Shown: positions 1 to 63,590 of the stretch, piece after piece
Position numbering within the stretch: position 1 is the stretch's first letter
How the letters are laid out: each line of letters starts with the position of its first letter
IMG/VR virus record: IMGVR_UViG_3300049919_000118
Location: 1,262-65,261 of that record
DNA length: 64,000 nt
Origin: a virus
Taxonomy: Duplodnaviria > Caudoviricetes
Reading direction: 5' to 3' (one strand)
Position numbers and translations under genes: made by a program
The notes under the pieces: model-generated
Told to the model about the DNA's origin: nothing
Seen by the model: the letters and a program-made list of their open reading frames with translations, nothing else
Database searches by the model: none

Positions 1-1007
1 GGGAGCAATGCAATAAGAGGGGACTAGGTAGAGTTAGGTTTTTTTTGAGCAATCGCCGAAAGGATGAAATGAGTCAGGCGGAAACATGAGTGGAGACAAA
101 CCCTCATGGCTGGTCGTATCGGACAATCGCAGGCATTAGCGAGAGCTAACGCCGCGCAACCAGCATGGTTGCGATGGCAACGATTGACGGCACGGTATTA
201 GTCGCGATGCGCGCGAAATTGACAAGGTCATTATTAACACCATGCAATAGCATGGCTAAAACAGCACACTGACAACGGTCATCAGGCTAGGTGATAGGAT
301 CAAAAAAACAAATCAAAACCTCATGAAGGCGGATGGTAAACATGGGGCGGATAAATAATATTATCCATCGCATTAGTAGCTATTGCGCGTCACCTATTGG
401 CCGCCGTAAAATTAACCCGTCAATCTAATTAGTGGGTTAATGAGTAACGGACAAAGCGGCCATTAGCTCGAAATTGCGTTGTGATTTTGTAATTAGGTTT
501 TTGTTTAGATCTTTGAAACACAAATTAAAATCTCAGGTAGAGATGAAAACGTGATGGACCTAAAGAGCGCAACAATTTTGGCAATCGTGCTAATTAGCGA
601 GTCGGTTACCCTGTAAACACGTCTAGTCAAAACAATCTGAGTTTGAATCAAATCACTCTGGTAATCATGCCGGGGTTGTCATGGCGATAGCTGATTGTGC
701 GCCCTGCGCAGCAGGGCGGGGCAAGCAAAGCTTGCTGCAAGCGGTATTTCGAGTTTGGCCTTTTTGGTCAATGGGACTCTTTACTGATTGCATCGTTGTG
801 CGCGTCACGCGTTGCTTATATACTCTCTAGGTATAGTATATGAGTTAGGTTTGATTTATACCTATCTTCTCGAGCAGGCAAGCAGGCTGACGCCCGCGCT
901 CGCTTCGCTCGTAAGAGATACCGCGTAACCTGTTCAACGGGGTGGGTTACGCGGTGTTAATTTTGGGTTAGGCGGGGATTGTGCAAACAGTCCCCGCCAT
1001 GCTCTAA

Positions 1008-1108
1008 GCGTTTCAACTCAGCGGTCAACAATATGACCGTTGGATTGTGCCGCTGTCGGTTGCAATGACGCAACCGACTGAACAAATTAGGCACTTCTTG
1101 AGATTATG
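1008..1108 (+). promoter_or_regulatory. Structured leader element, copy 1 (two adjacent stem-loops before ATG)
   Basis: gcgtttcaactcagcggtca-acaata-tgaccgttggattg, then gtgcc..gtcggttgc-aatgac-gcaaccgac..ggcac, then ttcttgagattATG; homologous to copies at ~1524 and ~2151. Confidence 0.75.
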
Positions 1109-1477
1109 ATAAAATTTATAAATTTAACCCCTCTCGCGCTGACTTGCGTTGGCGGGAGGTATATTCAAACCTTCCCCCCGAGCGGTGGGGTAGCTAGGGT
1201 GATTAACTCACCCGGAGTTTCCAGCTTCGTTGACGGCATGCCCGTTGAAGAGGCTGGAACCTCACTGTCTATTGACGGACTTCCATGCCCGCAGGAAGGT
1301 GTAATCCTTCTTGTGTCGGCGCAAGTCCGACAGGCCTTACCGCTTCGCACGGACCTTTACAGTCCGGGGGAGTTATTTAGAGATGATCAAGGGCAACTTA
1401 TTGGCTGTCGTGGATGGATAAGAAATCCATTCAGTCGCGATGCGACCGGTTTCAGCGAAGCTGAATCCACAATTTGA
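1106..1477 (+). CDS. Conserved phage hypothetical protein (NLTP..GLP..RxDL..RD.G.lIGC family)
   Basis: 123-aa ORF directly after leader copy 1; motif pattern recalled from phage hypotheticals. Confidence 0.75.
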   Translation: MIKFINLTPLALTCVGGRYIQTFPPSGGVARVINSPGVSSFVDGMPVEEAGTSLSIDGLPCPQEGVILLVSAQVRQALPLRTDLYSPGELFRDDQGQLIGCRGWIRNPFSRDATGFSEAESTI

Positions 1478-1523
1478 TTGACATTCCCCCGCCAACCTGC
1501 TTAACGGCGAGTTGGTGGGGGTA

Positions 1524-1623
1524 GCGTTTCAATTCAGCCGTCAATATTATGACGGCTGAATTGTGCCGCTGTCAGTTGCAATAACGCGACCAGCTTAACA
1601 AATTGGCACTTCTTGGAATTATG
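1524..1623 (+). promoter_or_regulatory. Structured leader element, copy 2
   Basis: caattcagccgtca-atatta-tgacggctgaattg perfect stem, then gtgcc..ggcac stem, then ATG 1621. Confidence 0.75.
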
Positions 1624-1791
1624 GTGAAGAAGATGAATGAGAAGCGGGTGGAAGCCGCTGAAAAGATAGCGGCCTTCATGGCTGAGGTTCTTGGCGCTTC
1701 TTGGGAAGTCCAAGAGGGAGACCTTGGAGACGGAATCCAAGGCGAGCCCCCGCCGCCCGCCTTGGATTTAATGGAGACAACCCCGGAATGA
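1621..1791 (+). CDS. Small acidic hypothetical protein
   Basis: ATG sits at the same position after the leader as in copies 1 and 3. Confidence 0.55.
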   Translation: MVKKMNEKRVEAAEKIAAFMAEVLGASWEVQEGDLGDGIQGEPPPPALDLMETTPE

Positions 1792-1839
1792 GTCGCGATG
1801 AGCAATCGAAGATTGCCCGGCAAGCAGAGCTTGTTGAGT

Positions 1840-2491: not shown

Positions 2492-3902
2492 ATACAAAAA
2501 GGAACCGGAGGTGGTGAGGAATCCAAAGCTTCCCACCTATCCGCCAAGCGACGAACAAGATGCTTTCTTTTCGTCGCTTTCCCGTGGTGGAAGTCGATTG
2601 CTTTCCGCTTCTCCGGGTAGTGGAAAATCCACCACCCTAACTTGGGCAATGCAGTTAATTGGCCAAGAGAAAGCGGCCATGGTAACGTTCGGAAAAGACA
2701 TTGCGAGGGATATCGAGCCGCGTTGCCCTTCGTGGCTTGACGTTGGTACATGTTGTTCATTTGGGTATAAAGCCCTTGCGAAAAAGCACGGTAGGCTGTT
2801 CCTAAGGTTCAATCTAGTTCAGGATTCCATCATTGAGCTTTTCCCTTATCTAAACCCTTTCGAGGCGGAAGATGGAGATCGCTCCGAGATGTTCCAATCC
2901 ATGAGGGATTCAATCACCCTTATCGACAGATTGAGACTTGGCATGTTTCCCCTATCCGAATCAATCTCGTTGGTGGAAAGCTTGTCACTATCCCCATTCA
3001 ATGAAGTTCTTGGGAACTTAGATAAGATTATTTCTCTTATCCGAAAGGACCCTTCCAAGCCAGACTTTACTGGCATGATTGAGCTTCCTATTTTGCTTGG
3101 CTATGAACTCCCAAGATACGACACAGTTTATACGGATGAGTGTCAGGATTTTTCACCTTTGATGATTAAGTTTATCGAAGGCCTAAGCCCCAAGCGAGTA
3201 ATCGCAGCGGGAGATGAAGATCAAGCGATATACGGGTGGGCAGGGGCTTCCCCCACCGCAATGCAAGACATATCTTCACTTTTCGGAGCGGAGGTCATGC
3301 AGCTTAATGTATGCTACCGTTGCGGCACTGACATAGTTGCCAAGGCAAAGGAGGTGGTCGATAAGATCATTCCCTTTTCCGGTAACGGCAAGGGCGTTGT
3401 CGAGACGGTCAATAGCATTGATCTATCTATGCCAGATGGCTCAATGATCCTTTCCCGTCGGAATGCTAGGCTTGTCGCACCGTGCCTCAAGCTTATACGA
3501 AATGGCCGCAAGGCTATCATCAAAGGGCGAGATATTGGGGAGCAGATGATCCAATCTATCGGCAAACCCAAGAGCCTAGATGATCTCGTTGCCAAGTTCT
3601 CCAACCCGAAGAAAGGGCGAGAAGATGAGGCTGAATGCATCATTGAGTTTGCAAATAACTCCCCTTCCGTCACTGAGGTGATTGACAAGATCAAGGCGAT
3701 CTTCTCAGATAGCACGAAAGGTATCATCTGCTCTTCCATTCACCGTGCTAAGGGTAAGGAGGCTTCCCATATTACCATAGTTGACTACTCCAACGTCAGG
3801 ATGAAGAGAGATGGTATGTCTGAACTTGATAAGCATCAAGAGCGATGCCTTGAGTTTGTTGCTCTTACTCGACCTAAGGATAAGCTATCCCTAATCCCGT
3901 GA
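2481..3902 (+). CDS. UvrD/Rep-like SF1 DNA helicase
   Basis: Walker A PGSGKST, DECQD, GDEDQAIYGW, CYRC, SIHRAKGKE and VALTR motifs. Confidence 0.92.
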   Translation: MKGKYKKEPEVVRNPKLPTYPPSDEQDAFFSSLSRGGSRLLSASPGSGKSTTLTWAMQLIGQEKAAMVTFGKDIARDIEPRCPSWLDVGTCCSFGYKALAKKHGRLFLRFNLVQDSIIELFPYLNPFEAEDGDRSEMFQSMRDSITLIDRLRLGMFPLSESISLVESLSLSPFNEVLGNLDKIISLIRKDPSKPDFTGMIELPILLGYELPRYDTVYTDECQDFSPLMIKFIEGLSPKRVIAAGDEDQAIYGWAGASPTAMQDISSLFGAEVMQLNVCYRCGTDIVAKAKEVVDKIIPFSGNGKGVVETVNSIDLSMPDGSMILSRRNARLVAPCLKLIRNGRKAIIKGRDIGEQMIQSIGKPKSLDDLVAKFSNPKKGREDEAECIIEFANNSPSVTEVIDKIKAIFSDSTKGIICSSIHRAKGKEASHITIVDYSNVRMKRDGMSELDKHQERCLEFVALTRPKDKLSLIP

Positions 3903-4129
3903 TAATTAAAGTAAACGAACCGGGTACCTTCCCTATATCTGACTCACTCATGGCTTCTGCTGTGGATGAATCTTTATGGGTGCATGGGTATGGGCTTATA
4001 GATGGTCACTCCGTAAGGGTGGATCGTAAGGTTGTGAATAATATTATTTCTTACAGGGTAGTTGGATCTTTAATGGTCTACTCTTGTTGTGAGTTATGGT
4101 ATCCTATAGAGTATATGGACTGGCGTTAG
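3899..4129 (+). CDS. Hypothetical protein
   Basis: GTGA overlap with the helicase stop. Confidence 0.55.
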   Translation: MIIKVNEPGTFPISDSLMASAVDESLWVHGYGLIDGHSVRVDRKVVNNIISYRVVGSLMVYSCCELWYPIEYMDWR

Positions 4130-4785: not shown

Positions 4786-4958
4786 ATAGTTCTTGCTCTT
4801 CTGCCACATATATGGTAGAAGAGTGGTCGCCGCCTTCAGTTCGCCTTGGCGAGCCGGGGTTTGCGCTCGCCAACTTCACGGGTGGCGCGGATTGAAACAA
4901 ACGATTGTTTTTATTGGCGGTCCTTGGCCAAGAAAATAAAATTAACTAAAAATAGTTC

Positions 4959-5760: not shown

Positions 5761-5814
5761 AATCAAGTTGTTCACCAATCATGGTCCCCGAACCCAGAAA
5801 CCGAAAATAATATT

Positions 5815-6144
5815 ATGCTCAAGGATAGATCTCAAGTAATGGAAACTATGGACATGTTCATTCAGTTTACTTCGTCAACCGGGGCACCTTCGGTGCTTCA
5901 GTTCTCCGAGGCGAACCCGATTGAATTGGAGTTGCTAATCCTGACTGAGGACATGATAGAGAAAGCCAAAGCTTCCTGCAAAGCAAGCGGGGCCTTCACC
6001 AACTATCAATTAAGCGCGGTTGGATTGAGTTACAAGGCTCTTCCAAAAGGATGGATGAGGGGTCTTGTTGGAACACAAATAACAAGAGGGAACTACGAGA
6101 AGTTCTGCACCCCAAAAAAGAAATTCAAGCACAAGCTAAACTAA
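5815..6144 (+). CDS. Hypothetical protein with FTxxQLSxxG..KGW repeat domain
   Basis: Domain is shared with the downstream ORF. Confidence 0.75.
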   Translation: MLKDRSQVMETMDMFIQFTSSTGAPSVLQFSEANPIELELLILTEDMIEKAKASCKASGAFTNYQLSAVGLSYKALPKGWMRGLVGTQITRGNYEKFCTPKKKFKHKLN

Positions 6145-6146
6145 CC

Positions 6147-6695
6147 ATGCCCAAGATCAAATTCAACCAAGACGGCCAACCAATCGAAAATAATATTAAC
6201 CATCGGGAGCAGGCCTCATTGATTAAGCTAACTCATAAGCACGTCAACGAGATGATGAAGAATTCACGTGATGGCGGATTCTCTAGCGGGCAACTGTCAG
6301 TATTAGGGTTGACCTTCAAGGATCTAAAGAAAAAAGGATGGAGACAAATGCTTGTTGGTAAGATGGTTTCTCAGCAGGATCTTAACTTCCTGACTAAAAA
6401 GAACACGCCAAAGGTAATCCATCATAAAGAGAAAGACAACTCCCCTCTGATTGAAATGACCGCTGAACGCATTGCCTTTGCGCTCAAGTGCTGCAAAGGC
6501 AGAGCATTCACTGATCGTCAACTATCTGCCACTGCCGGAATCATTACTGATAGGCAAGGCAACAGGGGAATCCTAGGTGCATACATAACTGAAAAGAATT
6601 ATGAAATCCTATGCACACCAAAGACTTTTGCTCAATTCCGGATGGAATCCATCCGGGCGGGGGCGAACATAAAGAAAGAACCAACACCGTTCTGA
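6147..6695 (+). CDS. Hypothetical protein with two copies of the same domain
   Basis: GGFSSGQLSVLGL..KGW and AFTDRQLSA..ITEKNYEILCTPK. Confidence 0.75.
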   Translation: MPKIKFNQDGQPIENNINHREQASLIKLTHKHVNEMMKNSRDGGFSSGQLSVLGLTFKDLKKKGWRQMLVGKMVSQQDLNFLTKKNTPKVIHHKEKDNSPLIEMTAERIAFALKCCKGRAFTDRQLSATAGIITDRQGNRGILGAYITEKNYEILCTPKTFAQFRMESIRAGANIKKEPTPF

Positions 6696-6787: not shown

Positions 6788-7108
6788 ATGAAATACAAAT
6801 GGCCTAAGAGAATAGAAGAGATCAACAGTAAGCGCCAAGGAGACGTGTTCTCTTGGCCGCCGGAAACAACAACGCAAACACTGAGTCAAGGGCAAGCCCT
6901 TGATCCGGTTGCGCAGCAACTGAAGGGGCGAAGGCTCCTTTCAGAGAAGAACGTTGAGACGTTATGCAAAGCAAGGGGAATGGTTGATGACCTCATTGAC
7001 GTGTCAGCGGTAGCGCTGATGGTAATTGTGTTCTGCGTGATTACATCATGCATAGCGGCCTTCTGCTTAACAGCAGTCAACTGGTTTGTAACCCAAATCC
7101 TACAATAA
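6788..7108 (+). CDS. Hypothetical membrane protein containing an in-frame hairpin insert (6883-6923)
   Basis: C-terminal hydrophobic helix; hairpin pair translated as LSQGQALDPVAQQL. Confidence 0.6.
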   Translation: MKYKWPKRIEEINSKRQGDVFSWPPETTTQTLSQGQALDPVAQQLKGRRLLSEKNVETLCKARGMVDDLIDVSAVALMVIVFCVITSCIAAFCLTAVNWFVTQILQ

Positions 7109-7112
7109 AATT

Positions 7113-7310
7113 ATGCAAGACGACAGCGAGGTTGAAGAGGAACCGAGATACAGCATCAAAAGATTCTACCATCCCGACCTAGATAGAAGGAACAGGATAA
7201 TTAAGCGCGGCCTCACGCTCGAGGAAGCTCAAGAGCATTGCTCCGATCCAAAGACCGCAAAGGAAGGGGTATACTTCGATGGCTATGAAAAACAATCAAC
7301 TAACATTTGA
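7113..7310 (+). CDS. Conserved small phage protein
   Basis: GLTLEEAQEHCSDP..FDGY motif. Confidence 0.75.
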   Translation: MQDDSEVEEEPRYSIKRFYHPDLDRRNRIIKRGLTLEEAQEHCSDPKTAKEGVYFDGYEKQSTNI

Positions 7311-8236: not shown

Positions 8237-8917
8237 ATGAAAATTTTATTAAAATTCACAAGAAGCAAGCAAGGCGTAGCTGAAAGCGGCTACACCATCG
8301 AAGATGGCGGGGCAAGTAAAGCTTGCTACACCAAGCAAGCTTTCTCTTGCTACATGCACACAGAGGTTGAGTCCGTTGACTCATACGTCACAGACGAGCA
8401 CCGCCCCATCCTCGAGGCTATCGCCTACCCGATATACGTTCACAAATCAACGGTGTATCACAGAATGTGGGTGTGCTCAGACTCCAAAGGGGGGCTGAGT
8501 ATTCCGGGGTCTTTGGCGACAAGTAAAGAACAGTCAGTATATCAGGCGATCAAGCGAATCCTTGGTGTAGGGATTGAAAAGTATAACTCATTGACAGCCA
8601 ATCTGTTACCAATTCCTGAAGGGGAATACGAAACATTTGAATTCAAGACTGAAAAAGAAGAGTCGGTAAACGAAATAGTAAAGCGCTACGACATCCCCAA
8701 TCTGAGGGATGAGATAAATAATATTATCGACGATGAGGGGCATCTAATCGAGAACCCGGAAAAGTTGAAAGGTGTTTCACTTGCGGTATGGTGTGCCTTG
8801 AATTTGGGTGATAGGGCGAAGGCAGCATCACTGCTTATGCAAATGAGTCCAAAGGAAAGAGACATCGCCTTAGCGATTGCTGAAATAGAACCAATAGAAG
8901 GGATACACAGACAATGA
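8237..8917 (+). CDS. Hypothetical protein
   Basis: 226-aa ORF. Confidence 0.75.
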   Translation: MKILLKFTRSKQGVAESGYTIEDGGASKACYTKQAFSCYMHTEVESVDSYVTDEHRPILEAIAYPIYVHKSTVYHRMWVCSDSKGGLSIPGSLATSKEQSVYQAIKRILGVGIEKYNSLTANLLPIPEGEYETFEFKTEKEESVNEIVKRYDIPNLRDEINNIIDDEGHLIENPEKLKGVSLAVWCALNLGDRAKAASLLMQMSPKERDIALAIAEIEPIEGIHRQ

Positions 8918-9840: not shown

Positions 9841-9935
9841 TATTATTTAATTCCAAACCGCCAAACGACTATGGAAACTTCGACACACGCCGCCCCGCCC
9901 GCTGTGGTGATCGTCTTTTTCGACATCTTACTATT

Positions 9936-53536: not shown

Positions 53537-55656
53537 GAAATCATATCTAACTCCCATAAAGAACTATGATCCTCGTGATCCTCGTTCTTCTCTTCTCCTG
53601 AGATGAAGCTATCATCGCCATCTAGCGGGGTCAATGGCAATCTCCTAAACATCAACATATACCAAGCCATCTCGAATAGGCAATCGAGGAGATCTGGTGA
53701 AAATCCATACTGCTTCTTGAAGTCTTGCTTGCTCTCCAAGTGGAACCTTGAACCATAGGTGGCGGAGTTCTTCATCCTATACCTGCGATAGTAAAGCTCT
53801 TCCTCGAGAGATCGCTCCCCGTTCATGAACTTAACCAATGATTCATTGATACCCCTCACCCTGCCAGCCTTGATGTATTGCTGTAATGCCCATGCACCAA
53901 GGCTAATCATATTCTCTGCAACATGATGAGCGCAGACCTTCCCCTTTGGCAGGTCATTCTTAAAGTCTAGATCTATGTCAAGCTTTATGACCTTCTCCAC
54001 CCTACCCGTATGCTTATCCCTTCTGGTTCCATCAGGAACCCCAACATTGTATATCAACTTCCTAACCAAGAAGCCCTTACTAAGCAACATCTCTGCGTGC
54101 GCAGGCCTCCCAGTCCAGTCAACAACGGCATTGCCAGATGTCACACCGTTCTTCTTTGCTATCTCAAGCAACTGATTTGAAGACTCAGTGTAATACTTAA
54201 TGCTCTCAGTTGACTTGACCAGCGGTATAACCGAGTGCGGACCAAACACCCTTTGCTTAGTGATTGAGCATATACCCTCCTTACCTATGACGCACAGATT
54301 TCTATCCAACTCAGCCTGAGCTGAGTCAAAGGCGAACATGGTATGAGTAACTCTATCCAATACCAATGGTGAATCAGCTAGGTTCTCCTTAACCAAGGTC
54401 TCGAAAATAACATTATTTTCTCCGGTCTCTGGGACTCTGAAGCCAACCCAGAAGCGCCTATATGATATGTTGGCATTAGTCCTGTTCTTCTTTTCGGGGT
54501 AGTTCTTATCAAGGGTCTTTTGGCTTGGTAAATGAGGGAATCTTTTATGCCCCTCATCCGTCATGCCCGGACTTAGATTGTTGTTGAAGTGCAGGACTAT
54601 TGCTTTTGAACCATTCTCGGTAGTGGAGACCCACTCTCCTGTTGATTCATCCACGGAATCCCATCCACCATCTGGCTTAATGTTGCTGGCCAGAGTATCA
54701 TTGTTTTCACCGTAGTTGCCCGCACCAATAATACGGTAATCCTTGGCGTGCATCGTGTAGTTTGGCGCAGCAAGGATTGGAGGATTGGGCGTTGATTGTA
54801 ATTCGTCCAGAATATACAGAACAAACGGGTGCCCGTGCGAACCAGTCAGCTTATCAATGATGGATTGGTTGTTCATCTGGTTTCCAATCAGGATTCCCTT
54901 GAACACACCACCTTTATCCTTGTTTCCCGGCCTAGCAAGGGTGTGATCCCCGGCAATCCTAGCTCTTCCAGCGTATAAAGACACACCGCCCTGGGTTGAA
55001 GAGTTCAAATTACACAGATACGCCCAGCCAACAGAGTCAAGCTTGTCCCTGTTGACCGTTGATAGCATACACCTCGCGCCCTTCTGGGTAAATATGAAGT
55101 AATCAAAGATCATCAGGCTAACAGCCAGACAAACAAGGGTCTTTCCCTGCCCTCCACCACCAAAAAGCATGACATACTTCTTGGTTTCGTTGGAAATAGC
55201 AGCAACTCTGCGCTCTGCCCACGGATCTCTTATGAATAATCCACGATGTTGGCCATCTTCCCCTATAATTGTGGGCCATCGCAGCTCTCCAGCGGCAAAC
55301 ATGAAGTCAGTTCGCGTGATTCCATATAATTCCCTAGTAGCAGCAAGATCATTCGCTAGAAAGTCATGCCCAGCTAGCGGCTCTTTCACATGAAGCTCTC
55401 TAAGAATGGAGATCTCCATGTCCAAAAGCTTATAATAGTTAAGCCAAATGAAAATAGTTAGGTCATATTGATACCTGAATGGATTCGGAACGTATTCGGT
55501 TGAGTATGGCTTGCTGTTATGTGCGCCAGAGGCGTAGAAATCAGCGTGATACTTAACCAAGCACTTCAATCCATACAGGTATATCGTATCTATCCCAGAA
55601 GAGTGGGCCTCTAGCGCCTTATTGAACCATGTAGATCCTATGTGATTATGGTTCAT
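53533..55656 (-). CDS. terL: Terminase large subunit
   Basis: Walker A GGGGQGKT, Walker B YILDE, GAGN coupling motif, nuclease FAFD..SPDLLD. Confidence 0.85.
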   Translation of the reverse strand: MNHNHIGSTWFNKALEAHSSGIDTIYLYGLKCLVKYHADFYASGAHNSKPYSTEYVPNPFRYQYDLTIFIWLNYYKLLDMEISILRELHVKEPLAGHDFLANDLAATRELYGITRTDFMFAAGELRWPTIIGEDGQHRGLFIRDPWAERRVAAISNETKKYVMLFGGGGQGKTLVCLAVSLMIFDYFIFTQKGARCMLSTVNRDKLDSVGWAYLCNLNSSTQGGVSLYAGRARIAGDHTLARPGNKDKGGVFKGILIGNQMNNQSIIDKLTGSHGHPFVLYILDELQSTPNPPILAAPNYTMHAKDYRIIGAGNYGENNDTLASNIKPDGGWDSVDESTGEWVSTTENGSKAIVLHFNNNLSPGMTDEGHKRFPHLPSQKTLDKNYPEKKNRTNANISYRRFWVGFRVPETGENNVIFETLVKENLADSPLVLDRVTHTMFAFDSAQAELDRNLCVIGKEGICSITKQRVFGPHSVIPLVKSTESIKYYTESSNQLLEIAKKNGVTSGNAVVDWTGRPAHAEMLLSKGFLVRKLIYNVGVPDGTRRDKHTGRVEKVIKLDIDLDFKNDLPKGKVCAHHVAENMISLGAWALQQYIKAGRVRGINESLVKFMNGERSLEEELYYRRYRMKNSATYGSRFHLESKQDFKKQYGFSPDLLDCLFEMAWYMLMFRRLPLTPLDGDDSFISGEEKNEDHEDHSSLWELDMIS

Positions 55657-55666
55657 GCGAATAATA

Positions 55667-56104
55667 TTATTTAATGTCGCTGTGCTTGATGGGCGATTCG
55701 CTGTAAGGCATATTATTTTGATAGCCGGTTCTTTCCATGCTTTCTAAATATCTTGTGAATTCACTTAATGTTATCGCGCCCTTTGGCTCATTCATGCGAG
55801 TCCTGCCTTCTGATTCTCTGTGAGCCTTGCCCTCTGCCGCATCTTCTTCTTTCTGCCTAGCGTCACATTCGCGGCATGAAGCTTCGCTTCCGCCGGGCTT
55901 CGTCTGGCAACCCTTAAGCCTTGCGATCTCATCTTGGATATACCAAGCGGCTTTCTGAAGATCTTCAATCGGACAGCCTTTTTCTCCGCGCCTCCAAATA
56001 TACTTGATCGCGTTACCGCAATTGAAGTTTTCGTGGCGCGTGATTTCAATGCACTCAACCTTGGACGGATGAGACTTATAGTGATCTGGATTAATTTTAC
56101 TCAT
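55667..56104 (-). CDS. DUF3310 (T7 gp1.7-like) protein
   Basis: NPDHY..ECIE..GNAIKYIWR..K..EDLQKAAWY. Confidence 0.85.
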   Translation of the reverse strand: MSKINPDHYKSHPSKVECIEITRHENFNCGNAIKYIWRRGEKGCPIEDLQKAAWYIQDEIARLKGCQTKPGGSEASCRECDARQKEEDAAEGKAHRESEGRTRMNEPKGAITLSEFTRYLESMERTGYQNNMPYSESPIKHSDIK

Positions 56105-57162
56105 GATGATATTTTTACTAGCGCAAGCCATCGCCCGCTTCCTTCGCAGTTCCCAACATTCACCTTTAGGTGGCCATTGTTGTGATCCGCCGTAACAGAA
56201 ACTGTCGGTGGCCCAACTGATAAGAACGCTATATTATCAAACGTCTTTGTCAACACCTCTTGCGAAAAGAATGTGGAGCCGGGAGTTGTCCAGTGACTCT
56301 TGTAACAAATGGAAGAGTATCTCCATGACGCAACCTGATCGCCTGAAGAACGCAAAATAATATTAATTTCTATGAGAGATGAATTGATCGGCAGCTTGAT
56401 CGTTCCGTCTGGCGGCGTGAGCGATGGGTTAATTGCCATCGTCACGACAGTAGATCCGAATGACTCAGCCTGAAGGATGAATTGACCGACCTGCTTACCA
56501 CCGTTGCCGGAGCCTGAATTAATGCTGTCGCCGCCATGAATGAATGAAGCCGGAGCGCCAAGATCTTCAGCGGTGTGGCCAATCCCCGATGAGCATTCAC
56601 CTGACATTATTACACCGCCTCCGCCAATGCACGATGATGACCTCCCGGAAGACACGGCGTTTTCACCAATAGAGCACGAGTATTCTCCAGATGCTCGATT
56701 CTGAGATGATGCGCATGAGAACGAATATGAGCCATTTGTTACGTTTGCAGATCCAGAGTTCAGGGCTTTCAGGTCAACCGAGAATGGCCCTCTCACATTA
56801 TCCGTGAATGGGGGTTTCTGACCAACGGTCGGTATCGACATGGCGATACTAGCTATGCCTTTTGGATAAAGAACAAAGTGAACGTCATCCTCGCCAGCAA
56901 GCTTTGCCTCAAATTTGCAAGATGTCTTGCTGTTAAAGATTACCACAGCAAGGCTGATTGACTCAGAAAAGTAGGTCATTGACGGCGCTGCCGGAACAAC
57001 CGTATCCCACTGAGATGTATCTGTTGGAAGTGTCGATGTAGAGTTCTTGGATACATACACCAAGTTGTTATACTTAACCATGGAATTTGCCGGGTATGCC
57101 CCAGCACTCCACGCTCCCTTCCATACCAACGGCGCAAATCCTTTAATGTCGCTCAGTATCAT
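56101..57162 (-). CDS. Tail fibre / receptor-binding protein (paralog 3)
   Basis: Shared N-terminus LSD.K.F.P.VW.G.W.AG.Y; Ser/Gly beta-roll repeats. Confidence 0.7.
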   Translation of the reverse strand: MILSDIKGFAPLVWKGAWSAGAYPANSMVKYNNLVYVSKNSTSTLPTDTSQWDTVVPAAPSMTYFSESISLAVVIFNSKTSCKFEAKLAGEDDVHFVLYPKGIASIAMSIPTVGQKPPFTDNVRGPFSVDLKALNSGSANVTNGSYSFSCASSQNRASGEYSCSIGENAVSSGRSSSCIGGGGVIMSGECSSGIGHTAEDLGAPASFIHGGDSINSGSGNGGKQVGQFILQAESFGSTVVTMAINPSLTPPDGTIKLPINSSLIEINIILRSSGDQVASWRYSSICYKSHWTTPGSTFFSQEVLTKTFDNIAFLSVGPPTVSVTADHNNGHLKVNVGNCEGSGRWLALVKISS

Positions 57163-58283
57163 GGGGCCATCTCTAGGGTGTTGAGCCTTCCTGTGTAGTA
57201 GGTGTACGTTCCGCCATTAGCGGTTTGGGCCATGAACTTTAACCTGCCATTGGAAGGGTCAATGGAAATAGCCAAGCATACCTGATTTGTTATGATTGAT
57301 GTTTCACCTGTTGTTTCTGGATACCTGAATGTCAGACCGTGTATTGTAGTGCTTGCCGGAGTGGGGCCAGTTTTAAGTATCATACCAGAAAATGACCATC
57401 TGGAAAATACCTCACCGTAAGGCGACACCGGAGAATTCCCCTTGGTCATAAACTCCCCAGAAAATTGAGTAAGCCCAATAGGCGGAAGGTAAGTGTCAAA
57501 CGTTGTCACGGCGTCCCCTCCAATCGTAAGCTCTCTGGAGACATTCGTAACCATCGAATTCCCCGAATGATAAATCAACTGCATGGCCTGACTGGCTCCA
57601 ACGGCATTTGAAAGCATTGACGATGAAGAGTGGACAAACGCATTCGCTAATGTTCTTGCCGTTCCATTCTTTCCAATGACAAGAGATCTCGTCCCGTTTG
57701 CCAAGTTATACTCTCCGAAGCACGTCGATGAAGCACCAGAAGCAATGTTCTTATATCCACCAATACACGCGGAACCAGTTCCAGATGCCGTGTTTGATCT
57801 GCCACCAAGAAGGGTTGCGTATGTCGCTGACGCCACCTCAGTCGCAATCTCTCTAGAAAGCTGAAGATCAACACACGCCTGCCCGCGAACATTACCACCA
57901 ACTGGCGTCTGATCTGGCACACTTGCCATCAAACTGCCAAATCCCTTTGGCTTAAGAACCAAATGAACGTCAGCCTCCGGCGCATACTTTGGAGTGATCT
58001 GGCACGACGGATGATCGTCAATACCTGAAACGTAATTCCCGTTAATATCCACCACAACCGGAGCTGGAATAGAAAGTGATTCCGTGAAGTATAGCAACGA
58101 ACTTGGCGTAACATGCGCAACGTCCCACTGAGATGAATCAGTCGGAATCGTGGCTGTGTTATTCTTCGAGACATAAGCAAGGCCATTGTAGGAAACCATT
58201 GAGTTTGCCGAGTATGTCCCGGCAACCCACGCACCCCTCCACACAGAGGGGTCAAATCTTTTAGTGTCGCTAAGGTTTGACAT
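57159..58283 (-). CDS. Tail fibre / receptor-binding protein (paralog 2)
   Basis: GGNVRG..VDLQ..QVAS-type motif and NTASG repeats. Confidence 0.75.
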   Translation of the reverse strand: MSNLSDTKRFDPSVWRGAWVAGTYSANSMVSYNGLAYVSKNNTATIPTDSSQWDVAHVTPSSLLYFTESLSIPAPVVVDINGNYVSGIDDHPSCQITPKYAPEADVHLVLKPKGFGSLMASVPDQTPVGGNVRGQACVDLQLSREIATEVASATYATLLGGRSNTASGTGSACIGGYKNIASGASSTCFGEYNLANGTRSLVIGKNGTARTLANAFVHSSSSMLSNAVGASQAMQLIYHSGNSMVTNVSRELTIGGDAVTTFDTYLPPIGLTQFSGEFMTKGNSPVSPYGEVFSRWSFSGMILKTGPTPASTTIHGLTFRYPETTGETSIITNQVCLAISIDPSNGRLKFMAQTANGGTYTYYTGRLNTLEMAP

Positions 58284-58297
58284 AATTTTATTTTATA

Positions 58298-58360
58298 AAA
58301 TTTGTTGCGAAGCAACTATAATTAAACTTTGTTTAAATTTGTTGCAAAGCAACTATAATT
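58298..58360. repeat. 26-bp direct repeat containing a GTTGC-(G/A)AA-GCAAC hairpin
   Basis: aaatttgttgcgaagcaactataatt / aaatttgttgcaaagcaactataatt. Confidence 0.75.
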
Positions 58361-58382
58361 TTATTTATTGGAATGCGCGGCC

Positions 58383-59209: not shown

Positions 59210-59247
59210 TGCGTGTGAAAGTTAAAATTATTTATTCTTCGTGTCGA

Positions 59248-59472: not shown

Positions 59473-59831
59473 TAAGTTTCCGGCCCTTCAATGATTGAGG
59501 TGCAGATAAACTTCTCACCATCAAATGCAATATCAGATCTCCCTGGCTCAGTTGGTGCCCTTACGCCAAATTCTTTTATGCCCATGAAGTCTAGTGACCT
59601 GTTGATCTGGGTGTTTGTTTCTTCACTCATATTGAGTATCGACAGGGATCTATCGACATCATCATTCAAAACATCAAGCAGCCTATCAGTTGGAAGATCA
59701 TTCCAAAATGAATAGTTTACAGAGGTGCTGTTTGATGCGTGATGATGGAGAGACTCCCCACTTCGGAAAATCAATAGGTCAAGCCATTGAAGATCTCTCT
59801 CTAGTTGTGTTAGTTGGCGTTGTATACTCAT
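59472..59831 (-). CDS. Hypothetical protein (possible fibre chaperone)
   Basis: Coupled to the fibre gene. Confidence 0.6.
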   Translation of the reverse strand: MSIQRQLTQLERDLQWLDLLIFRSGESLHHHASNSTSVNYSFWNDLPTDRLLDVLNDDVDRSLSILNMSEETNTQINRSLDFMGIKEFGVRAPTEPGRSDIAFDGEKFICTSIIEGPET

Positions 59832-61690
59832 AAGATTGGATCAATTACTCTCGCGTGATAAATCGCTGATCTGATTTGTAATCCCCTATTCCCAGAAACG
59901 GTTCCGGTAGCGACGTTGGCGACATTCCAAAAATTGCCGTTTGCAACAGCATTAGTCGGGACTGACGTTCCTGTGTGGGTTCCGATTAGAGTCCATCTCC
60001 CGACAGATGTTTGTGGTGCCCGCGTCTTCGCATAAAGTTTCAGCACTCCATTATTCCATGTTATCATCAAGCGAGATAGGCTTTGAAAGGTAATTGATAT
60101 CGTTAGTGATGACGATTCCGTGAGACTGCTCCCCCATACTTGCAGTTTTGCCGTAGTGTCACTTGTGATGATAACGGAAAAACCTGCGCCTGTAAGCTCT
60201 GTCGCCGTCGCGCTCGTCACCCCGTAGAGGAGACGATACTCGTTATTGTTCACCCCCTGGGTATAGATGTCATAAACGACGCTAAACCTAGCGTCACCAA
60301 GCCGCATTGTTTGCCCAGATCCAATAGACGTATCAAGCGGGTTACGATACGCGACTGATGCAACCCTGTTGTTAGTCACCACAGCACCAGAGCTAAGCGA
60401 AACTTCCGCCCTGATTGATTCAGAAGCGGAGCCTGTGCTGTTAGCAGAACCCGTTGACGGCAAAAACGCAAGCTGGTATGTATCATCCTGTATGGTGTCG
60501 TCGTATTTGATAAGGCTCGCCGCAACAGGGAAACCCGTGCCGCTAGACGTTGGCCGGGTGGTCGAGGAAAATGCTTGCGCACCCGTGATGGTCGATCCGT
60601 TCCATGTGTTTGCCCCAACTGTTATATTCCCAGAAAATGCACCACCACCAGAACTGTCTCGAAGAACAAGGGTATCCGGAGCCGGGCTAACCGAAGATGC
60701 TTGCGCTGATCCAACAGCGGTAGGATACGACAGAATCGCCCAATCGGCAGAAACCTCAACGCGTTGCGCCTTAACATCAACGGCATACGCATTGGTATTC
60801 AAAACCTTGTTAGCATAACCAGTGGTGGACAGGAATCCTTGAATGTTTGGATTACTAGCAAAGTGTGCCGCAACAGAGCGATACGGATTAGCAACCGCAC
60901 CATAAGAATTAAACGTAACAGCAACACCATTTCCATCATTAGCTTGAGATGTCCCAACAATAGGAATCTTCCAGTATGCACCCATGTCAGCCCCAACACC
61001 GGAAACGGTAAACGCAATCCCTCCAATAGTAATCGTATCTCCAGACTTCAATGATGTCAGAACCGCCAGAGTGTTCACCGCTGACAGCGCAATCTCATTG
61101 ATATAAAGAAACCCAGAATCATCATTCGGCTGCATGATCTGCCCAACACCCGGAACGGTAACATTGTTAGGCGTCGAGTAATCGTAAGTCCTATTGCTCG
61201 TTGTGAGAGTTGTTGTATCAACCCTTGAAAGAGCAATATCAAGAATCTCCCCGCTCCTAACCAATAACTGGGAGACCGGATAAATAATATTAATTCCGAC
61301 GGCTTGGGGATACACCCTGCGACTCACCGAGACTTGAGTTGGACCGGGATTGAGGATGTATGCAACAGACCATTGGATGTTTGATGCAATAGAATCAGCG
61401 TAGTATTCCATGCTCTGAACAAACCCATTGACGGTCGAGGTGTAACGCTGTCCGGTGATTACCTCAGAAGCACTCGGGGAAGTGGTCGCAAACGCGGCAT
61501 TCAAATCCATGAACTCAACAGGGACGCCAACATTGATTGGCCCCGGCTGCTCTGAAGTATCCTTCAACGCAACACATGAGTATCCACCCGTAGTAACAAT
61601 CGAGCTCTCTGGGTAAGTCCCAGCGGACCACTCGCCCCTGAACACTGTCGGGTCGAATCTATTAACGTCTGATAAAAGTTTGTCTGGCAT
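59828..61690 (-). CDS. Tail fibre / receptor-binding protein (paralog 1)
   Basis: Same N-terminal module; TLVLRDSSG motif; C-terminal lectin-like beta domain. Confidence 0.75.
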   Translation of the reverse strand: MPDKLLSDVNRFDPTVFRGEWSAGTYPESSIVTTGGYSCVALKDTSEQPGPINVGVPVEFMDLNAAFATTSPSASEVITGQRYTSTVNGFVQSMEYYADSIASNIQWSVAYILNPGPTQVSVSRRVYPQAVGINIIYPVSQLLVRSGEILDIALSRVDTTTLTTSNRTYDYSTPNNVTVPGVGQIMQPNDDSGFLYINEIALSAVNTLAVLTSLKSGDTITIGGIAFTVSGVGADMGAYWKIPIVGTSQANDGNGVAVTFNSYGAVANPYRSVAAHFASNPNIQGFLSTTGYANKVLNTNAYAVDVKAQRVEVSADWAILSYPTAVGSAQASSVSPAPDTLVLRDSSGGGAFSGNITVGANTWNGSTITGAQAFSSTTRPTSSGTGFPVAASLIKYDDTIQDDTYQLAFLPSTGSANSTGSASESIRAEVSLSSGAVVTNNRVASVAYRNPLDTSIGSGQTMRLGDARFSVVYDIYTQGVNNNEYRLLYGVTSATATELTGAGFSVIITSDTTAKLQVWGSSLTESSSLTISITFQSLSRLMITWNNGVLKLYAKTRAPQTSVGRWTLIGTHTGTSVPTNAVANGNFWNVANVATGTVSGNRGLQIRSAIYHARVIDPIL

Positions 61691-61752
61691 TTCGTGTGGA
61701 AGTTAAAATTATTTCTTAGAGTCGGCAAAGCCGACCCTGGTTGCGAAGCCAA

Positions 61753-62211
61753 TTAGAGGTTGTAAACAGACCAACCCTGCGCACCACCAACAAACACCAA
61801 CCTCAAATGCGCTCCAGATATGTTGCAGATCAGATTCCCTGCATTCGCATTTATAAGTTGACCATTTCGATTAACTGTTAAATTATTAACAAAGAACGTT
61901 GACTGAGAATCATAGATGTCAACATACTCACCCTCGGTTGGACTGGCTGGCAATGTAATGGAAAATGAACCTAACGTAGTGTCAGCCAAAACATCATCAC
62001 CACTACTCATTAAGTATGGCCCAGAAACATCAACAGGATTAAAACTACTACCACCACTACTGCCACCAAGGATACTGTTGGCTGTCAACACCAACAACAG
62101 CTCCCCAACAGTAGTCGGCAACTGGATCATCACATCCTTCAGGGAGTCACCACGGCCCGCCGAGATAACCCCAGCAGTAACCATACAATCAATCTGAGAG
62201 AAAGCATTCAT
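61753..62211 (-). CDS. Tail fibre-associated protein, paralog of 58383-58829
   Basis: FNPVDVS..ITLP..VDIYD..RNGQLIN..GGAQGW. Confidence 0.7.
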   Translation of the reverse strand: MNAFSQIDCMVTAGVISAGRGDSLKDVMIQLPTTVGELLLVLTANSILGGSSGGSSFNPVDVSGPYLMSSGDDVLADTTLGSFSITLPASPTEGEYVDIYDSQSTFFVNNLTVNRNGQLINANAGNLICNISGAHLRLVFVGGAQGWSVYNL

Positions 62212-62242
62212 TTAACTGGAAGGGTAATAGAAAAATAAAATT

Positions 62243-62749
62243 ATGTCAACAGAAAAAAAAGAGGAAACAAGAGCGGAAAGGAAGCTCCGAGAGGAGGGGC
62301 CAAAGAATCACACCGTAACAAGAAAGTCTCACGAGGCTGGATTGGGGGCCATCCTATACAAGCAACTCCTACACAAACAACTCAACACAATCAGGGGAGA
62401 GATCATCAAATCAAATGAAGAAATTACCATCGCCTTTATCAGACCCAAAACCATCACTCACTCACCTACCATAGCCAACCAAATACTCATCAAATACAAA
62501 GACGGGTCATACGAACTACTCAGAAGGGGAATCTCCGGGGACGCAATCAAACACTATCTTGGACTGTCCTTCGCTAACATCGAATCATACGCCTTCCTCC
62601 CAACCCAAAAGATTTGCGGAGATAAGTGGCCAACAGTATCGGTAGAGTCGGCTTTGCCGACCCTGGTTGCTTCGCAACTAGGTTGCTGCACAACCGGGTT
62701 GATCAAAGATCAACTAGAAGGACGCGGGCTCAACGAATACCAACCATGA
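62243..62749 (+). CDS. Hypothetical protein
   Basis: 168-aa ORF; C-terminus runs through hairpin repeats at 62647-62702. Confidence 0.6.
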   Translation: MSTEKKEETRAERKLREEGPKNHTVTRKSHEAGLGAILYKQLLHKQLNTIRGEIIKSNEEITIAFIRPKTITHSPTIANQILIKYKDGSYELLRRGISGDAIKHYLGLSFANIESYAFLPTQKICGDKWPTVSVESALPTLVASQLGCCTTGLIKDQLEGRGLNEYQP

Positions 62750-63333
62750 GAGGATACGAAAAAGAAAGGTCTGCCGAAACAATCAGACTCGCCGCACCAA
62801 TAGAAGAACGGATACTACAACTCCTAGCTCTAGGCCTAAGACTCCCCACAATCGTATCAACCATCAATGACGAATTCAAAGAAATGCTAGTCAAACCAAT
62901 GAACAGCTCAACAGCACAAGCATTCATCCACGAAAATAAAGAAAGAGCAAACAATGTGAGGGAAAACATTACCAAACACTGCCGGGAAGAACTATCCCTA
63001 CACGCAGCCGAACTGTTCAGGCGCGTTGCCAAAGCTGAACAATCCATAATAGATGTCTTCTCATCCAAACTCACAGAAGCCCTCACAACCCTATCATCAC
63101 TAGACATCGACGAACAAGGCAATAACGGGAAATTCATCAACATATCACGAACATTCCAACTCCTAGAACTCATCGACAAATACCACACCAAGGCAGCCAA
63201 ACTCGTCGGAACAGAAGCAATGCGCGACATCGAAACATTCAGAGCTAAAGCCCAAATCAAAAAGACAGAAGAAGAAAAAACATCCGGCTTAATGCCCGCC
63301 ATCAAAGTAGATTCTTCAACCCGGTTTCTATGA
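62746..63333 (+). CDS. HTH protein, possible terminase small subunit
   Basis: N-terminal HTH-like LLALGLRLPTIVSTI, helical body, AAKLVG. Confidence 0.45.
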   Translation: MRGYEKERSAETIRLAAPIEERILQLLALGLRLPTIVSTINDEFKEMLVKPMNSSTAQAFIHENKERANNVRENITKHCREELSLHAAELFRRVAKAEQSIIDVFSSKLTEALTTLSSLDIDEQGNNGKFINISRTFQLLELIDKYHTKAAKLVGTEAMRDIETFRAKAQIKKTEEEKTSGLMPAIKVDSSTRFL

Positions 63334-63590
63334 AACCGGGCCGGGTTCACCTATGGTGAACCCGGTTCGCCATAGGTGAACCGGGTTAGCTTCGCTAACC
63401 CGACGAGATTCTTATAGTTTGCTTCGCTGGAAGGGCGTTTGCTTCGCTGAGTTAAGGGCGAGCCCTTAACCCGGTTGCGCAGCAACTGAAGTTAAATAAT
63501 ATTATTTATTAATCATGTTGCGGCAACCGCATTCAAGCAACTCCGTTCAGTTCACCTTGGTGAACCGGGTTCAGCTTGGCTGAACTCAAG
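63318..63590. repeat. Mini-hairpin cluster
   Basis: gttcacc-tat-ggtgaac ccg gttcgcc..; gttagc-ttc-gctaac; ttaagggcgagcccttaa ccg gttgcgcagcaac. Confidence 0.85.

Follow-up and report, generated by a model that had tools for sequence, protein, structure and literature searches.

A short palindrome kept at high copy number and even spacing in the chromosome of an uncultured freshwater phage

What keeps more than fifty copies of one short palindrome in a phage chromosome that otherwise avoids palindromes? The question is raised by a stretch of 64,000 nucleotides (nt), here called the window, which comprises bases 1262-65261 of a 65,261-bp viral contig (IMG/VR record IMGVR_UViG_3300049919_000118; Caudoviricetes) from an uncultured phage found in freshwater runs. 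A preliminary description of the window, made from its letters alone, had listed 33 copies of the palindrome TAATATTA and supposed them to be dispersed binding sites for a dimeric protein. The analysis presented here finds that this word is the core of a larger, strictly conserved and evenly spaced element with 55 sites. The interpretation preferred, with a probability of roughly 0.45, is that the element would be the recognition site for a two-fold-symmetric, probably phage-encoded DNA-binding protein acting along the whole chromosome.

Frequency and form of the element

All 33 positions listed in the preliminary description hold an exact TAATATTA, and two further copies are present at 42691 and 44411. 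The 35 copies in the window compare with a mean of 0.96 and a maximum of 3 in 100 dinucleotide-preserving shuffles, which bears out the over-representation that had been claimed. The ten-base word ATAATATTAT occurs 24 times against an expectation of 0.07, and TAATATTA is the commonest 8-mer of the 65,261-bp record, where it has 36 copies; the reversed control, ATTATAAT, has none. Variants of the type AATAAAATTATT had also been mentioned, and these are real, TAAAATTA being found at 18171, 19344, 20746, 24469 and 46066. Among 12 pairs of single-base variants, the only enriched pair is that in which a central base is changed (TAAAATTA and TAATTTTA, 16 + 4 = 20 copies against about two expected per orientation), the others occurring between zero and three times each. 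As the variant copies have the same aaa...ttt flanks, and lie in contexts identical in kind to those of the TAATATTA copies, they are counted as the same element, giving 55 sites in the window. This identity had been missed in the preliminary description, as had the even spacing of the sites and the fusion of about half of them to the ends or starts of genes.

The arms TAA...TTA are invariant in 55 of 55 sites, only the central base differing. With its flanks the element forms a palindrome of 14-16 bp, (A)AA-TAA[T/A]ATTA-TT(T) in the window phage and TAAT-TAATATTA-ATTA in a sister lineage. It is isolated, in that no other position is conserved from -50 to +30, and its information peaks at the centre rather than in covarying arms. 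A -35-like upstream partner, GTAAAC/GNRAAC at a distance of about 20 nt, can be rejected, since it accompanies only five of the 55 sites, two of which belong to a duplicated repeat. Chance, composition and codon usage are ruled out as causes by the dinucleotide shuffles and by the synonymous and codon-order shuffles given below. In five unrelated viral contigs of similar size that contain the 14-mer, the core is roughly as frequent as its reversed control, the counts of the two being 12 and 13, 19 and 17, 12 and 7, 3 and 16, and 20 and 9, respectively.

The strict core and mirrored flanks favour the proposal of a site for a dimeric protein, as does the implausibility of a hairpin: the predicted folding energy is 0 kcal/mol at four of eight representative sites and -0.5 to -3.5 kcal/mol at the rest, and no z-score falls below -1.6. 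A two-fold-symmetric, presumably homodimeric, sequence-specific protein would read such a palindrome as double-stranded DNA. Separately, the orientation of the variant is biased, 16 copies reading TAAAATTA on the + strand and four reading TAATTTTA; in the direction of the genes, ten of ten on the + arm of the chromosome read TAAAATTA, against a mixture of four and six on the - arm (14 against 6 overall).

Selection on the nucleotide sequence

Inside genes, the 21 copies of TAATATTA compare with 3.76 ± 1.84 in synonymous-codon shuffles (maximum of 10 in 300) and with 1.63 ± 1.30 when codon order is shuffled. The codon-preserving shuffles suggested as a check in the preliminary description thus fail to explain the intragenic copies, and its view that selection acts at the DNA level is upheld. 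The gene for a 3153-aa protein (29305-38766, - strand) holds six copies, as had been described, at 30909-30916, 32679-32686, 34818-34825, 36102-36109, 37110-37117 and 38526-38533, against 1.28 ± 1.04 expected; none of 1000 synonymous shuffles reaches six. Of the 21 intragenic copies, 19 use the frame xxT-AAT-ATT-Axx, which encodes N-N-I-I-like peptides. The NNII tetrapeptide occurs eight times against 0.27 expected, while the NI dipeptide is not enriched (75 against 72). A repeated peptide can be rejected as the cause, because the genes concerned are unrelated, NI is unenriched, and the excess is confined to the NNI, NII and NNII contexts. Selection is on the DNA rather than the peptide, and the excess over codon shuffles, together with that of NNII, implies that the proteins have adapted to carry the word.

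The retention of this palindrome is the more striking as palindromes are purged elsewhere in the genome. Nine of the 53 palindromic hexamers expected eight or more times are absent (CATATG, CTGCAG, GGATCC and TTCGAA among them), and the median ratio of observed to expected counts is 0.37 for palindromic hexamers against 0.96 for non-palindromes. GTAC is found six times against 106 expected. AATATT has 38 copies, 35 of them inside the full motif, leaving three outside it against 23 expected. The same avoidance is seen in four relatives (L013, L017, L025 and L019 of the set described below). Avoidance of this kind is what type II restriction systems classically select for. A phage in which palindromes are strongly disfavoured can nonetheless keep one of them at high copy number. 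Known Chi sites lack symmetry and are rich in G, and restriction sites are depleted, not in excess. On these traits, and given the avoidance of other palindromic hexamers, a Chi-like or restriction site was set aside.

Spacing along the chromosome

When the genome is treated as a circle with 56 sites, the coefficient of variation of the spacing is 0.56, which was reached by none of 20,000 random placements. The mean spacing is 1165 bp and the largest gap is 3026 bp (P = 0.001 against random placement). Redrawing the junction sites at random junctions and the intragenic sites at random coding positions gives the same result, with none of 20,000 simulations reaching the observed coefficient. When the 31 sites of the junction class are held fixed and only the 24 intragenic ones are placed afresh in coding DNA, again none of 20,000 does so, and the largest gap has P = 0.007. 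As the evenness persists with the junction sites fixed, gene boundaries do not account for it: intragenic copies occupy the intervals that the junction copies leave empty.

A DNA transaction on both strands, such as lagging-strand priming, nicking, entry of a recombination protein, or binding for packaging or condensation, might account for this pattern. The mean interval and the largest gap are near the size of bacterial Okazaki fragments, a palindrome presents the identical word to both strands, and the filling of gaps by intragenic copies is what such a process might require. The phage encodes two helicases, a RuvC-like resolvase and a PD-(D/E)XK nuclease, although searches of Pfam, PHROGs, NCBIfam and PDB sequences with the window proteins turned up no recognisable RNA polymerase, sigma factor, DNA polymerase, primase or integrase. 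Known primase sites are mostly trinucleotides, unlike the element, and neither a primase nor a nickase was identified in the window proteins. Pairs of sites only 35-73 nt apart in one intergenic region (44376/44411 and 58283/58356) would be redundant for spacing, and the strong tie to stop and start codons would need the additional argument that these are the cheapest places for a site. A role of this sort is considered distinctly unlikely. Rolling-circle initiation of the geminivirus type does not fit. Its nonanucleotide, TAATATTAC, lies once per replicon in the loop of a GC-rich stem and is served by an HUH Rep protein; here none of the 35 copies is followed by C, no GC stem flanks them, there are 35 copies, and no Rep family was found.

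The largest gap coincides with a motif-free cassette that had already been pointed out, and indeed no copy lies in 11615-14632. The gap is a repeat-rich stretch between two 96-nt repeats (11558-11653 and 14584-14679, 3026 bp apart), each with one copy of the motif, at 11607-11614 and 14633-14640. Each repeat is ordered as a hairpin with a 12-bp stem, an A run, the motif, 24 nt and an ATG (11639 and 14665, the latter that of a RadC-like gene). The cassette as a whole (10780-14680) consists of small open reading frames (ORFs) split by recurring boundary modules of families D1-D14 (for instance AACGTCTAGC...GGCATC and CCGGTTAGGTCTCACGACTTG); it has paralogous 5' ends at 11639 and 12028, contains a gene of the XRE helix-turn-helix type (13656-13976), and looks like a recombination-shuffled accessory module.

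Position relative to genes

By a crude gene set (86 ORFs covering 92% of the window, the start calls being especially crude), the 55 sites divide into 24 intragenic, 15 intergenic, 14 fused to a stop codon, a start codon or both, and two that are doubtful through over-extended starts. The strand of each variant copy is given in brackets below; copies of TAATATTA read alike on both. In eight sites, against 0.1% by chance, the TAA of the motif is the stop codon of the upstream gene. These are 4937-4944 (+; ORF 4793-4939), 9838-9845 (ORF 9283-9840), 18171-18178 (+; ORF 17586-18173, with an in-frame ATG 8 nt on), 40625-40632 (+, reading TAATTTTA in the gene direction; ORF 40630-41595, 20 nt before ATG 40604), 55662-55669 (ORF 55667-56131, 5 nt before the ATG of the terminase-like gene) and three junctions of the form TAAWATTATG, where stop and start are both fused to the motif: 7106-7113 (+; stop of 6788-7108, start of 7113-7310), 24236-24243 (+; stop of 23882-24238, ATG 24243) and 29084-29091 (stop of 28745-29086, ATG 29091). 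The last A of the motif is the first base of the next ATG in nine sites, which beside these three are 5808-5815 (ORF 5815-6144), 24469-24476 (+; ATG 24476), 27647-27654 (8 nt past a stop; ATG 27654), 44376-44383 and 58283-58290 (both -, reading TAAAATTA in the gene direction; ORFs 42640-44376 and 57159-58283) and 62236-62243 (+). The last of these occupies a 31-bp divergent junction with no other notable element, its final A starting ATG 62243 on the + arm and the site lying 24 nt before ATG 62211 on the - arm. At 46970-46977 the last A begins an in-frame ATG that is likely to be the true start of gene 46683-46988. Overall, 17 of the 55 sites lie 0-30 nt past a stop codon, against 5% by chance.

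Other sites lie in intergenic DNA: 356-363, in a long non-coding stretch at the window start; 407-414 (+); 1852-1859, within a hairpin (CTAAGATAA...TTATCTTAG, by eye) followed by a T run and 35 nt before ATG 1895; 16792-16799, 20 nt past a stop and 36 nt before ATG 16836; 20746-20753 (+), 4 nt past the stop of 19761-20744; 49099-49106, 39 nt before ATG 49059; 59223-59230 and 61704-61711 (both +, reading TAATTTTA in the gene direction), each 13 nt before an ATG (59209 and 61690); and 63497-63504. The site at 26584-26591 is counted as intergenic in the crude gene set, yet is inside a RuvC-like ORF, 26111-26803. Start calls are doubtful at 19344-19351 (+), 8 nt before an ATG in ORF 19315-19764, and for the ORF following 46066-46073 (+, reading TAATTTTA in the gene direction), which is 14 nt past a stop. 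In some long intergenic regions (44411/44376 and 58356/58283) terminator-like hairpins are flanked by a copy at the stop and a second copy at the start: 44411-44418 is 4 nt past the stop of 44420-45607 and is followed by the hairpin AGGGC-TTT-GCCCT, while 58356-58363 (-) is 22 nt past a stop and is followed by two hairpins of the form GTTGC...GCAAC. The latter pair, in the intergenic region 58284-58382 between two variant copies, is near-identical (GTTGC-TTT-GCAAC and GTTGC-TTC-GCAAC). The order motif, hairpin, motif is also found at 44376-44418 and after the capsid-like gene of the relative L017 (16594/16808).

On the + arm, the intragenic copies are at 4039-4046 (ORF 3899-4129), 6191-6198 (ORF 6051-6695), 8719-8726 (ORF 8237-8917), 15488-15495 (helicase gene 15147-16526), 17132-17139 (within called ORF 16836-17480 and 13 nt before the ATG of an alternative ORF, 17153-17650), 20845-20852 (+; codons 2-4 of ORF 20840-22201), 22388-22395 (+; HNH-like ORF 22219-22725), 23843-23850 (near the 3' end of the ThyX gene 23037-23891, 31 nt before ATG 23882) and 25928-25935 (ORF 25456-26283; one of two copies out of the usual frame). 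On the - arm, in addition to the six in the 3153-aa gene, they are at 39674-39681 (38775-40604), 42043-42050 (41597-42643), 42691-42698 (near the 3' end of 42640-44376, 47 nt before ATG 42643), 50895-50902 and 52023-52030 (codons 694 and 318 of the portal-like gene 50662-52983), 53425-53432 (+; codon 42 of gene 52976-53557), 56092-56099 (-; overlap of ORFs 55667-56131 and 56101-57162), 56358-56365 (56101-57162) and 61285-61292 (59828-61690).

The association with gene starts raises the alternative of a stand-alone promoter, in which host RNA polymerase redirected by a phage factor, or else a very divergent phage polymerase, would start at or just after the motif. Many genes would then have very short or leaderless mRNAs, and the motif would owe its symmetry to being a bidirectional -10/-7-type element. 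The likely host is relevant here. Shine-Dalgarno sequences are absent, and A peaks upstream of the window genes at -3 (33/55), -6 (32/55) and -13 (30/55); starts without Shine-Dalgarno sequences and with such A peaks are a pattern reported for Bacteroidetes in the source drawn on here (PMC6847099), and the likeness suggests a Bacteroidota-like host. The nearly invariant positions of the Bacteroidetes -7 box, TAHHTTTG, are T-12, A-11, T-8, T-7, T-6 and G-5, with transcription starting 4-5 nt downstream, as given in the same account. Like this box, the element is an 8-bp AT-rich word that begins with TA. Read in the gene direction, TAATTTTA matches five of the six nearly invariant positions, missing only G-5 (PMC6847099), and it lies upstream of six - arm genes, the first gene included. 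By contrast TAATATTA matches only four of the six (with A at -8 and -5) and has no direction, and many copies adjoin the ATG, leaving no room for 4-5 nt plus a leader (PMC6847099).

Other evidence on the promoter is similarly divided. Nine of the 55 window sites overlap the ATG by one base, a 31-bp divergent junction holds nothing but the motif, the 96-nt repeats place hairpin, motif, 24-nt leader and ATG in order, and several intergenic copies lie 13-39 nt before the ATG, similar to leader lengths described for F. johnsoniae (PMC6847099). Against this, the spacing between motif and ATG is anywhere from -1 to more than 40 nt, which one common transcription start would not accommodate. The final gene of the - arm holds six copies, and a sense promoter inside it would have no gene downstream to serve; other copies are just upstream of a terminator-like hairpin (44411 and 58356) or within one (1852). 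Even spacing of intragenic copies is not a promoter trait, and, as noted above, a polymerase or sigma factor was not found among the window proteins. Overall, a promoter is regarded as an unlikely explanation, if one worth keeping in view.

An mRNA signal, acting in translation initiation or reinitiation in place of the Shine-Dalgarno sequence, or as an endoribonuclease cleavage site at gene borders, would also sit at stops and starts. It is in keeping with genes that lack Shine-Dalgarno sequences and have upstream A peaks, as in Bacteroidetes (PMC6847099), and with the many copies that adjoin an ATG or overlap a stop, like the start-associated sequences described for Cluster K mycobacteriophages (PMC3203893). 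Nevertheless, 24 of 55 copies are intragenic, mostly without an adjacent in-frame start, and these are enriched and evenly spaced; mirror-symmetric flanks are needless for an RNA word, and the predicted hairpin is unstable. An mRNA signal is regarded as very improbable.

Distribution among related phages

Relatives were sought by several routes. At least 120 metagenomic relatives of the terminase-like protein were found, at 32-87% identity, and 101 of a 382-aa capsid-region protein. Among named phages, megablast gave no match to the 3153-aa gene and tblastn none to the terminase-like protein. Single-protein and alignment scans of a viral contig collection yielded no useful relatives, and a scan of it for the 14-mer returned scattered single hits among the matches listed. 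The comparisons below use 29 loci (L006-L034) from one metagenome scan, in which relatives are seen only over about 22 kb around the terminase-like gene.

The same core is present in relatives whose terminase-like proteins are 33-69% identical. When all 30 loci are counted, TAATATTA is the top 8-mer in L009, L013 and L016; in L025 and most of the loci that belong to the nearer clade its density is 0.3-1.1 copies per kb, and it is absent from L018-L021, L024, L032 and L034. Genes and sites were mapped in ten of the 29 loci, the larger or site-rich ones having been chosen. Gene-boundary sites make up 15 of 17 in L013 and essentially all ten in L017. An ORF start is found at -2 to +9 nt from 29 of the 71 sites in these loci, compared with 15% for random positions, an excess that also fits a promoter. 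At the junction before the terminase-like gene a site lies 3-5 nt before the start in L006, L007, L010, L013, L015, L017 and the window; a site upstream of gene 46683-46988 is found in L013 and L017 too, and the junction of the site at 49099-49106 has sites in L009, L013 and L017.

The flanks of the core differ between lineages, while mirror symmetry is kept. L006, L007, L010, L013 and L015 have the type TAAT|core|ATTA (33 sites, with T at position 1 in 29 of 33 upstream and 30 of 33 downstream), and no directional bias is seen in this group. The window, L009, L012, L016 and L017 have AAA|core|TTT, and L025 has TAA|core|TTA, in which position 3 is switched. Own over-represented words were sought in nine further loci. 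Different inverted repeats, occupying the same kinds of place, were found in more distant relatives: L019 (AACTTAT-CA-ATAAGTT, six copies), L027 (TAGTA-AAAA-TACTA, seven copies, several adjoining ATG) and L029 (AATA-AAAA-TATT, six copies). L006 additionally has six copies of TTAA-CA-TTAA, five of them 4-13 nt before an ATG and one, at 258, without a nearby ATG. The TAAAATTA form is over-represented in L023, and in the short loci L021, L024 and L033 no such word was found. The differences between these repeats imply that half-sites covary while the central 2-4 nt are free, and comparison of the sequences indicates that palindromy itself is under selection. A hairpin might in principle give rise to such covariation, but the weak folding described above speaks against one. 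Symmetric flank changes and replacement by other inverted repeats are unexpected for a sigma -10 element. An unrelated observation in L022 is a local tandem repeat of TAAGTTCC (at least five units, 387-460), the only repeat seen there, which has no connection with the dispersed palindromes.

Lineage-specific half-sites are also evidence against a fixed host factor, and so bear on the idea that the copies are decoys or hijacked sites for a host regulator or nucleoid protein, titrated by replicating phage DNA. The Fur/PerR/Zur box is an inverted repeat of the 7-1-7 form around TAAT-N-ATTA. The Fur hexamer NAT(A/T)AT accommodates the half-site AATAAT, and high copy number would suit titration. 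Here, however, the half-sites abut (TAAT|ATTA) in a 7-0-7 arrangement, so the likeness to Fur/PerR boxes drawn in the preliminary description does not hold. Half-sites such as AACTTAT and TAGTA misfit any one conserved host regulator, and titration has no need of even spacing. A decoy for a host protein is barely plausible.

The terminase-like tree is a quick, not a final one, built from 18 near-full-length sequences with 12 partial loci left out. In it L006, L007, L010 and L013, all of the TAAT/ATTA type, form a clade with 100% support, whereas the AAA/TTT type appears on basal branches and across the deepest split, and label clustering is moderate. From the comparison of sequences the element is ancient in this phage family, with arms specific to the lineage.

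Some intragenic sites recur at orthologous codons. Codon 42 of gene 52976-53557 holds a site, in variant form, in the window (53425-53432) and TAATATTA in seven relatives (L006, L007, L009, L010, L011, L012 and L013). At codon 503 of the terminase-like gene there are sites in six relatives, three with TAATATTA and three with TAACATTA; at codon 476 of the portal-like gene in four; and at codon 473 of the gene at 47032 in three distant relatives. The site at codon 318 of the portal-like gene (52023-52030) is matched in L009. In the alignment around codon 42, AAT-ATT is kept at synonymous positions by seven of ten relatives while neighbouring codons vary; it is absent from L008, L017 and L029. 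The recurrent sites fall where residues of the K/N-N-I type are tolerated, hence peptide conservation contributes, and the fixed synonymous positions point to a constraint at the nucleotide level. The check on intragenic conservation suggested in the preliminary description accordingly does not refute its view, some copies lying at orthologous codons, although many others are not conserved. No RNA run was found to contain this phage. Four DNA runs covering 29001-49000 contain the same strain as fragmented contigs, with five differences in 20 kb, none in the motif; being the same strain, they carry no information on conservation, starts or ends.

A proposed docking site acting along the chromosome

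The results above establish the enrichment, the strict core, the mirror symmetry, the even spacing, the conservation and the action of selection on nucleotides; the binding of a protein, its dimeric state, its phage origin and the effect of binding are inferences. The reading as a recognition site for a dimeric protein would bring these results together as follows. Selection would keep about one site per 1.2 kb without long gaps, and sites would be put where they are cheapest: fused to stops, as the motif begins with TAA, fused to starts, as its last A can begin ATG, and, inside long genes, written into codons of the Asn-Asn-Ile-Ile type. Stop and start fusion, the variable distance to the ATG, and the copies in terminator hairpins and in long genes would all follow from this logic. 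The reader is most likely encoded by the phage itself, because the arms diverge with the lineage. Once bound, it would act chromosome-wide rather than at single promoters, most likely as a global transcription silencer or roadblock, or as a genome organiser or coat that starts at the sites.

Several observations weigh against this reading. The one helix-turn-helix protein that could be recognised, the short XRE-type one at 13656-13976, is encoded within the motif-free, repeat-flanked cassette and is possibly not conserved. The concentration of relatives' sites close to ORF starts (29 of 71), the 31-bp divergent junction with only the motif, and the two copies that follow a hairpin and precede a 24-nt leader, a promoter-like order, would equally fit a role in expression. 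Many intragenic sites lack positional conservation, only one of four mappable window sites having a near match (in L009), and flank types follow the quick terminase tree only in part, the type designated A requiring three changes, a value equalled in 12 of 500 shuffles. Finally, in the window the upstream AAA is better kept (32, 29 and 29 of 35) than its mirror TTT (26, 19 and 21 of 35). This imbalance hints at directionality, for which a symmetric binder has no need; it may instead reflect coding and start-codon constraints, and is absent from the L013-type lineage. Of the preliminary proposal, therefore, the dimeric site is favoured, while its binder was not found and the roles listed for it (organiser, repressor, decoy, ejection, packaging or self-marking) are not told apart.

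A more specific version of the docking site would make the copies the nucleation points of a 'self' system of the phage, in which an evenly docked, phage-encoded dimer, with gaps no longer than about 3 kb, would spread or bridge so as to coat or fold the chromosome. The coat might shield the DNA from host nucleases or silence it on command, with half-sites diversifying like immunity specificities. If true, it would explain why 55 copies of one palindrome are kept, with proteins rewritten, in a genome that purges palindromes. In this specific form the proposal is quite improbable.

Comparison with known repeats

A full-text literature search for the word with phage and promoter found no such motif among its top matches. 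The closest known parallel, a likeness in kind and not homology, is the 17-bp palindrome of Cluster O mycobacteriophages, 5'-TGTTCGGNNNCCGAACA, which is described as having 34 copies and no known function, and for which Cresawn et al. (2015) propose a dimeric regulator (PMC4351075). As that account describes them, the Cluster O sites share with the present element more than 30 copies per genome, invariant inverted arms around a free centre, a distribution over short intergenic spaces, gene 5' ends and gene interiors (about one third there), and the placing of most sites at the same position in related genomes (PMC4351075). Recombination between copies is tied to insertions and deletions in Cluster O (PMC4351075), for which the 3026-bp stretch between two repeats offers a parallel here. 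The differences are that TGTTCGGNNNCCGAACA is GC-rich with a 7-3-7 arrangement, against AT-only and 7-0-7 here, and that phages and hosts are unrelated. The window element adds stop/start fusion, even spacing and diverging half-sites; evenness and codon fusion are not reported for Cluster O in the parts of the source drawn on (PMC4351075).

The stoperators of Cluster A are described as more than 20 copies of a 13-bp site in promoters and short intergenic spaces, at which a phage repressor of the L5 gp71 type silences the genome by blocking elongation (PMC9283540). Genome-wide sites in short intergenic spaces are common to both systems, both arms carrying sites here, but stoperators lack symmetry, act in a single orientation with respect to transcription and are bound by a protein that is monomeric and has two DNA-binding domains (PMC9283540), whereas the present element is symmetric. 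Orientation of the stoperator type is not seen in the window variant, given its mixture on the - arm, and neither a stoperator-type repressor nor an integrase, which would be a sign of lysogeny, was seen among window proteins in Pfam, PHROGs and NCBIfam, most small proteins being unannotated.

The start-associated sequences of Cluster K (SAS/ESAS) are reported as a conserved word 3-7 bp before starts, sometimes holding the upstream stop, of unknown function (PMC3203893). A stop within the word and conservation across subclusters are points of likeness, and a position before start codons is shared by a part of the sites (29 of 71 in relatives, and in the window nine that overlap an ATG plus a few more); the SAS is, however, asymmetric, in one orientation, contains a Shine-Dalgarno-like AGGAG and occurs only in the non-structural half of the genome (PMC3203893). 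The element described here is palindromic, made of A and T only, without a Shine-Dalgarno sequence, present on both arms, and intragenic in 24 of 55 sites.

Genome-wide short phage repeats are known from a few actinobacteriophage clusters, only the stoperators having a demonstrated mechanism, and such a system is now found in phages from freshwater and soil that form a large uncultured family and whose hosts probably lack Shine-Dalgarno sequences (Bacteroidota-like). The lineage-specific mirror arms amount to a natural set of specificities by which the reader could be sought through covariation, and function is open to test through the strict 8-bp core, the selected even spacing, the stop/start fusion and the copies at conserved codons. 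Were the reader a chromosome-wide silencer, coat or organiser, it would represent a new layer of phage genome biology; were the element a promoter, it would be a compact transcription signal for a phage group without a recognisable polymerase. In practice the motif can serve as a metagenome marker of the family and in correcting gene-start calls.

Other features of the chromosome

CheckV gives the record a completeness of 38. The 28 bp common to both contig ends are two units of a 14-bp tandem array (AACGGCATCACTGA...), found at 63840-63995 and running on into the contig end and start, in which a 17-mer occurs six times in 156 bp against 0.02 expected. The end repeat is for this reason an unresolved repeat and no proof of true termini; the array units are possibly iterons of an origin.

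The + arm (1-29261) carries genes for helicases and for RadC-like, ThyX, GroES-like and MazG-like proteins, and the - arm (29305-62211) carries the structural genes, the terminase-like 707-aa gene and, at its end, the 3153-aa gene; + strand genes resume from 62243. The 3153-aa protein has no Pfam or PHROG hit and no PDB sequence match at E <= 1, and a virion RNA polymerase of the N4-like or crAss-like kind is unsupported by these searches. Its closest ESM-Atlas clusters carry LPD38/LPD39 'large polyvalent protein' domains (scores of 0.92-0.95, a lead only), and the predicted protein is probably no polymerase but a multi-domain virion protein that is ejected. A set of nucleotide-metabolism and accessory genes (28428-28748, 23037-23891, 26800-27351 and 18415-19260) includes a MazZ-like dATP/dGTP diphosphohydrolase N-terminal domain, ThyX, a GroES-like domain fused to an N-terminal extension, and a match to a PHROG 'DNA methyltransferase' family that has no Pfam or NCBIfam hit. 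A bidirectional intrinsic hairpin terminator (AAAGCCCGCTA...TAGCGGGCTTTTTT) lies at 29262-29304, exactly where the two gene arms converge.

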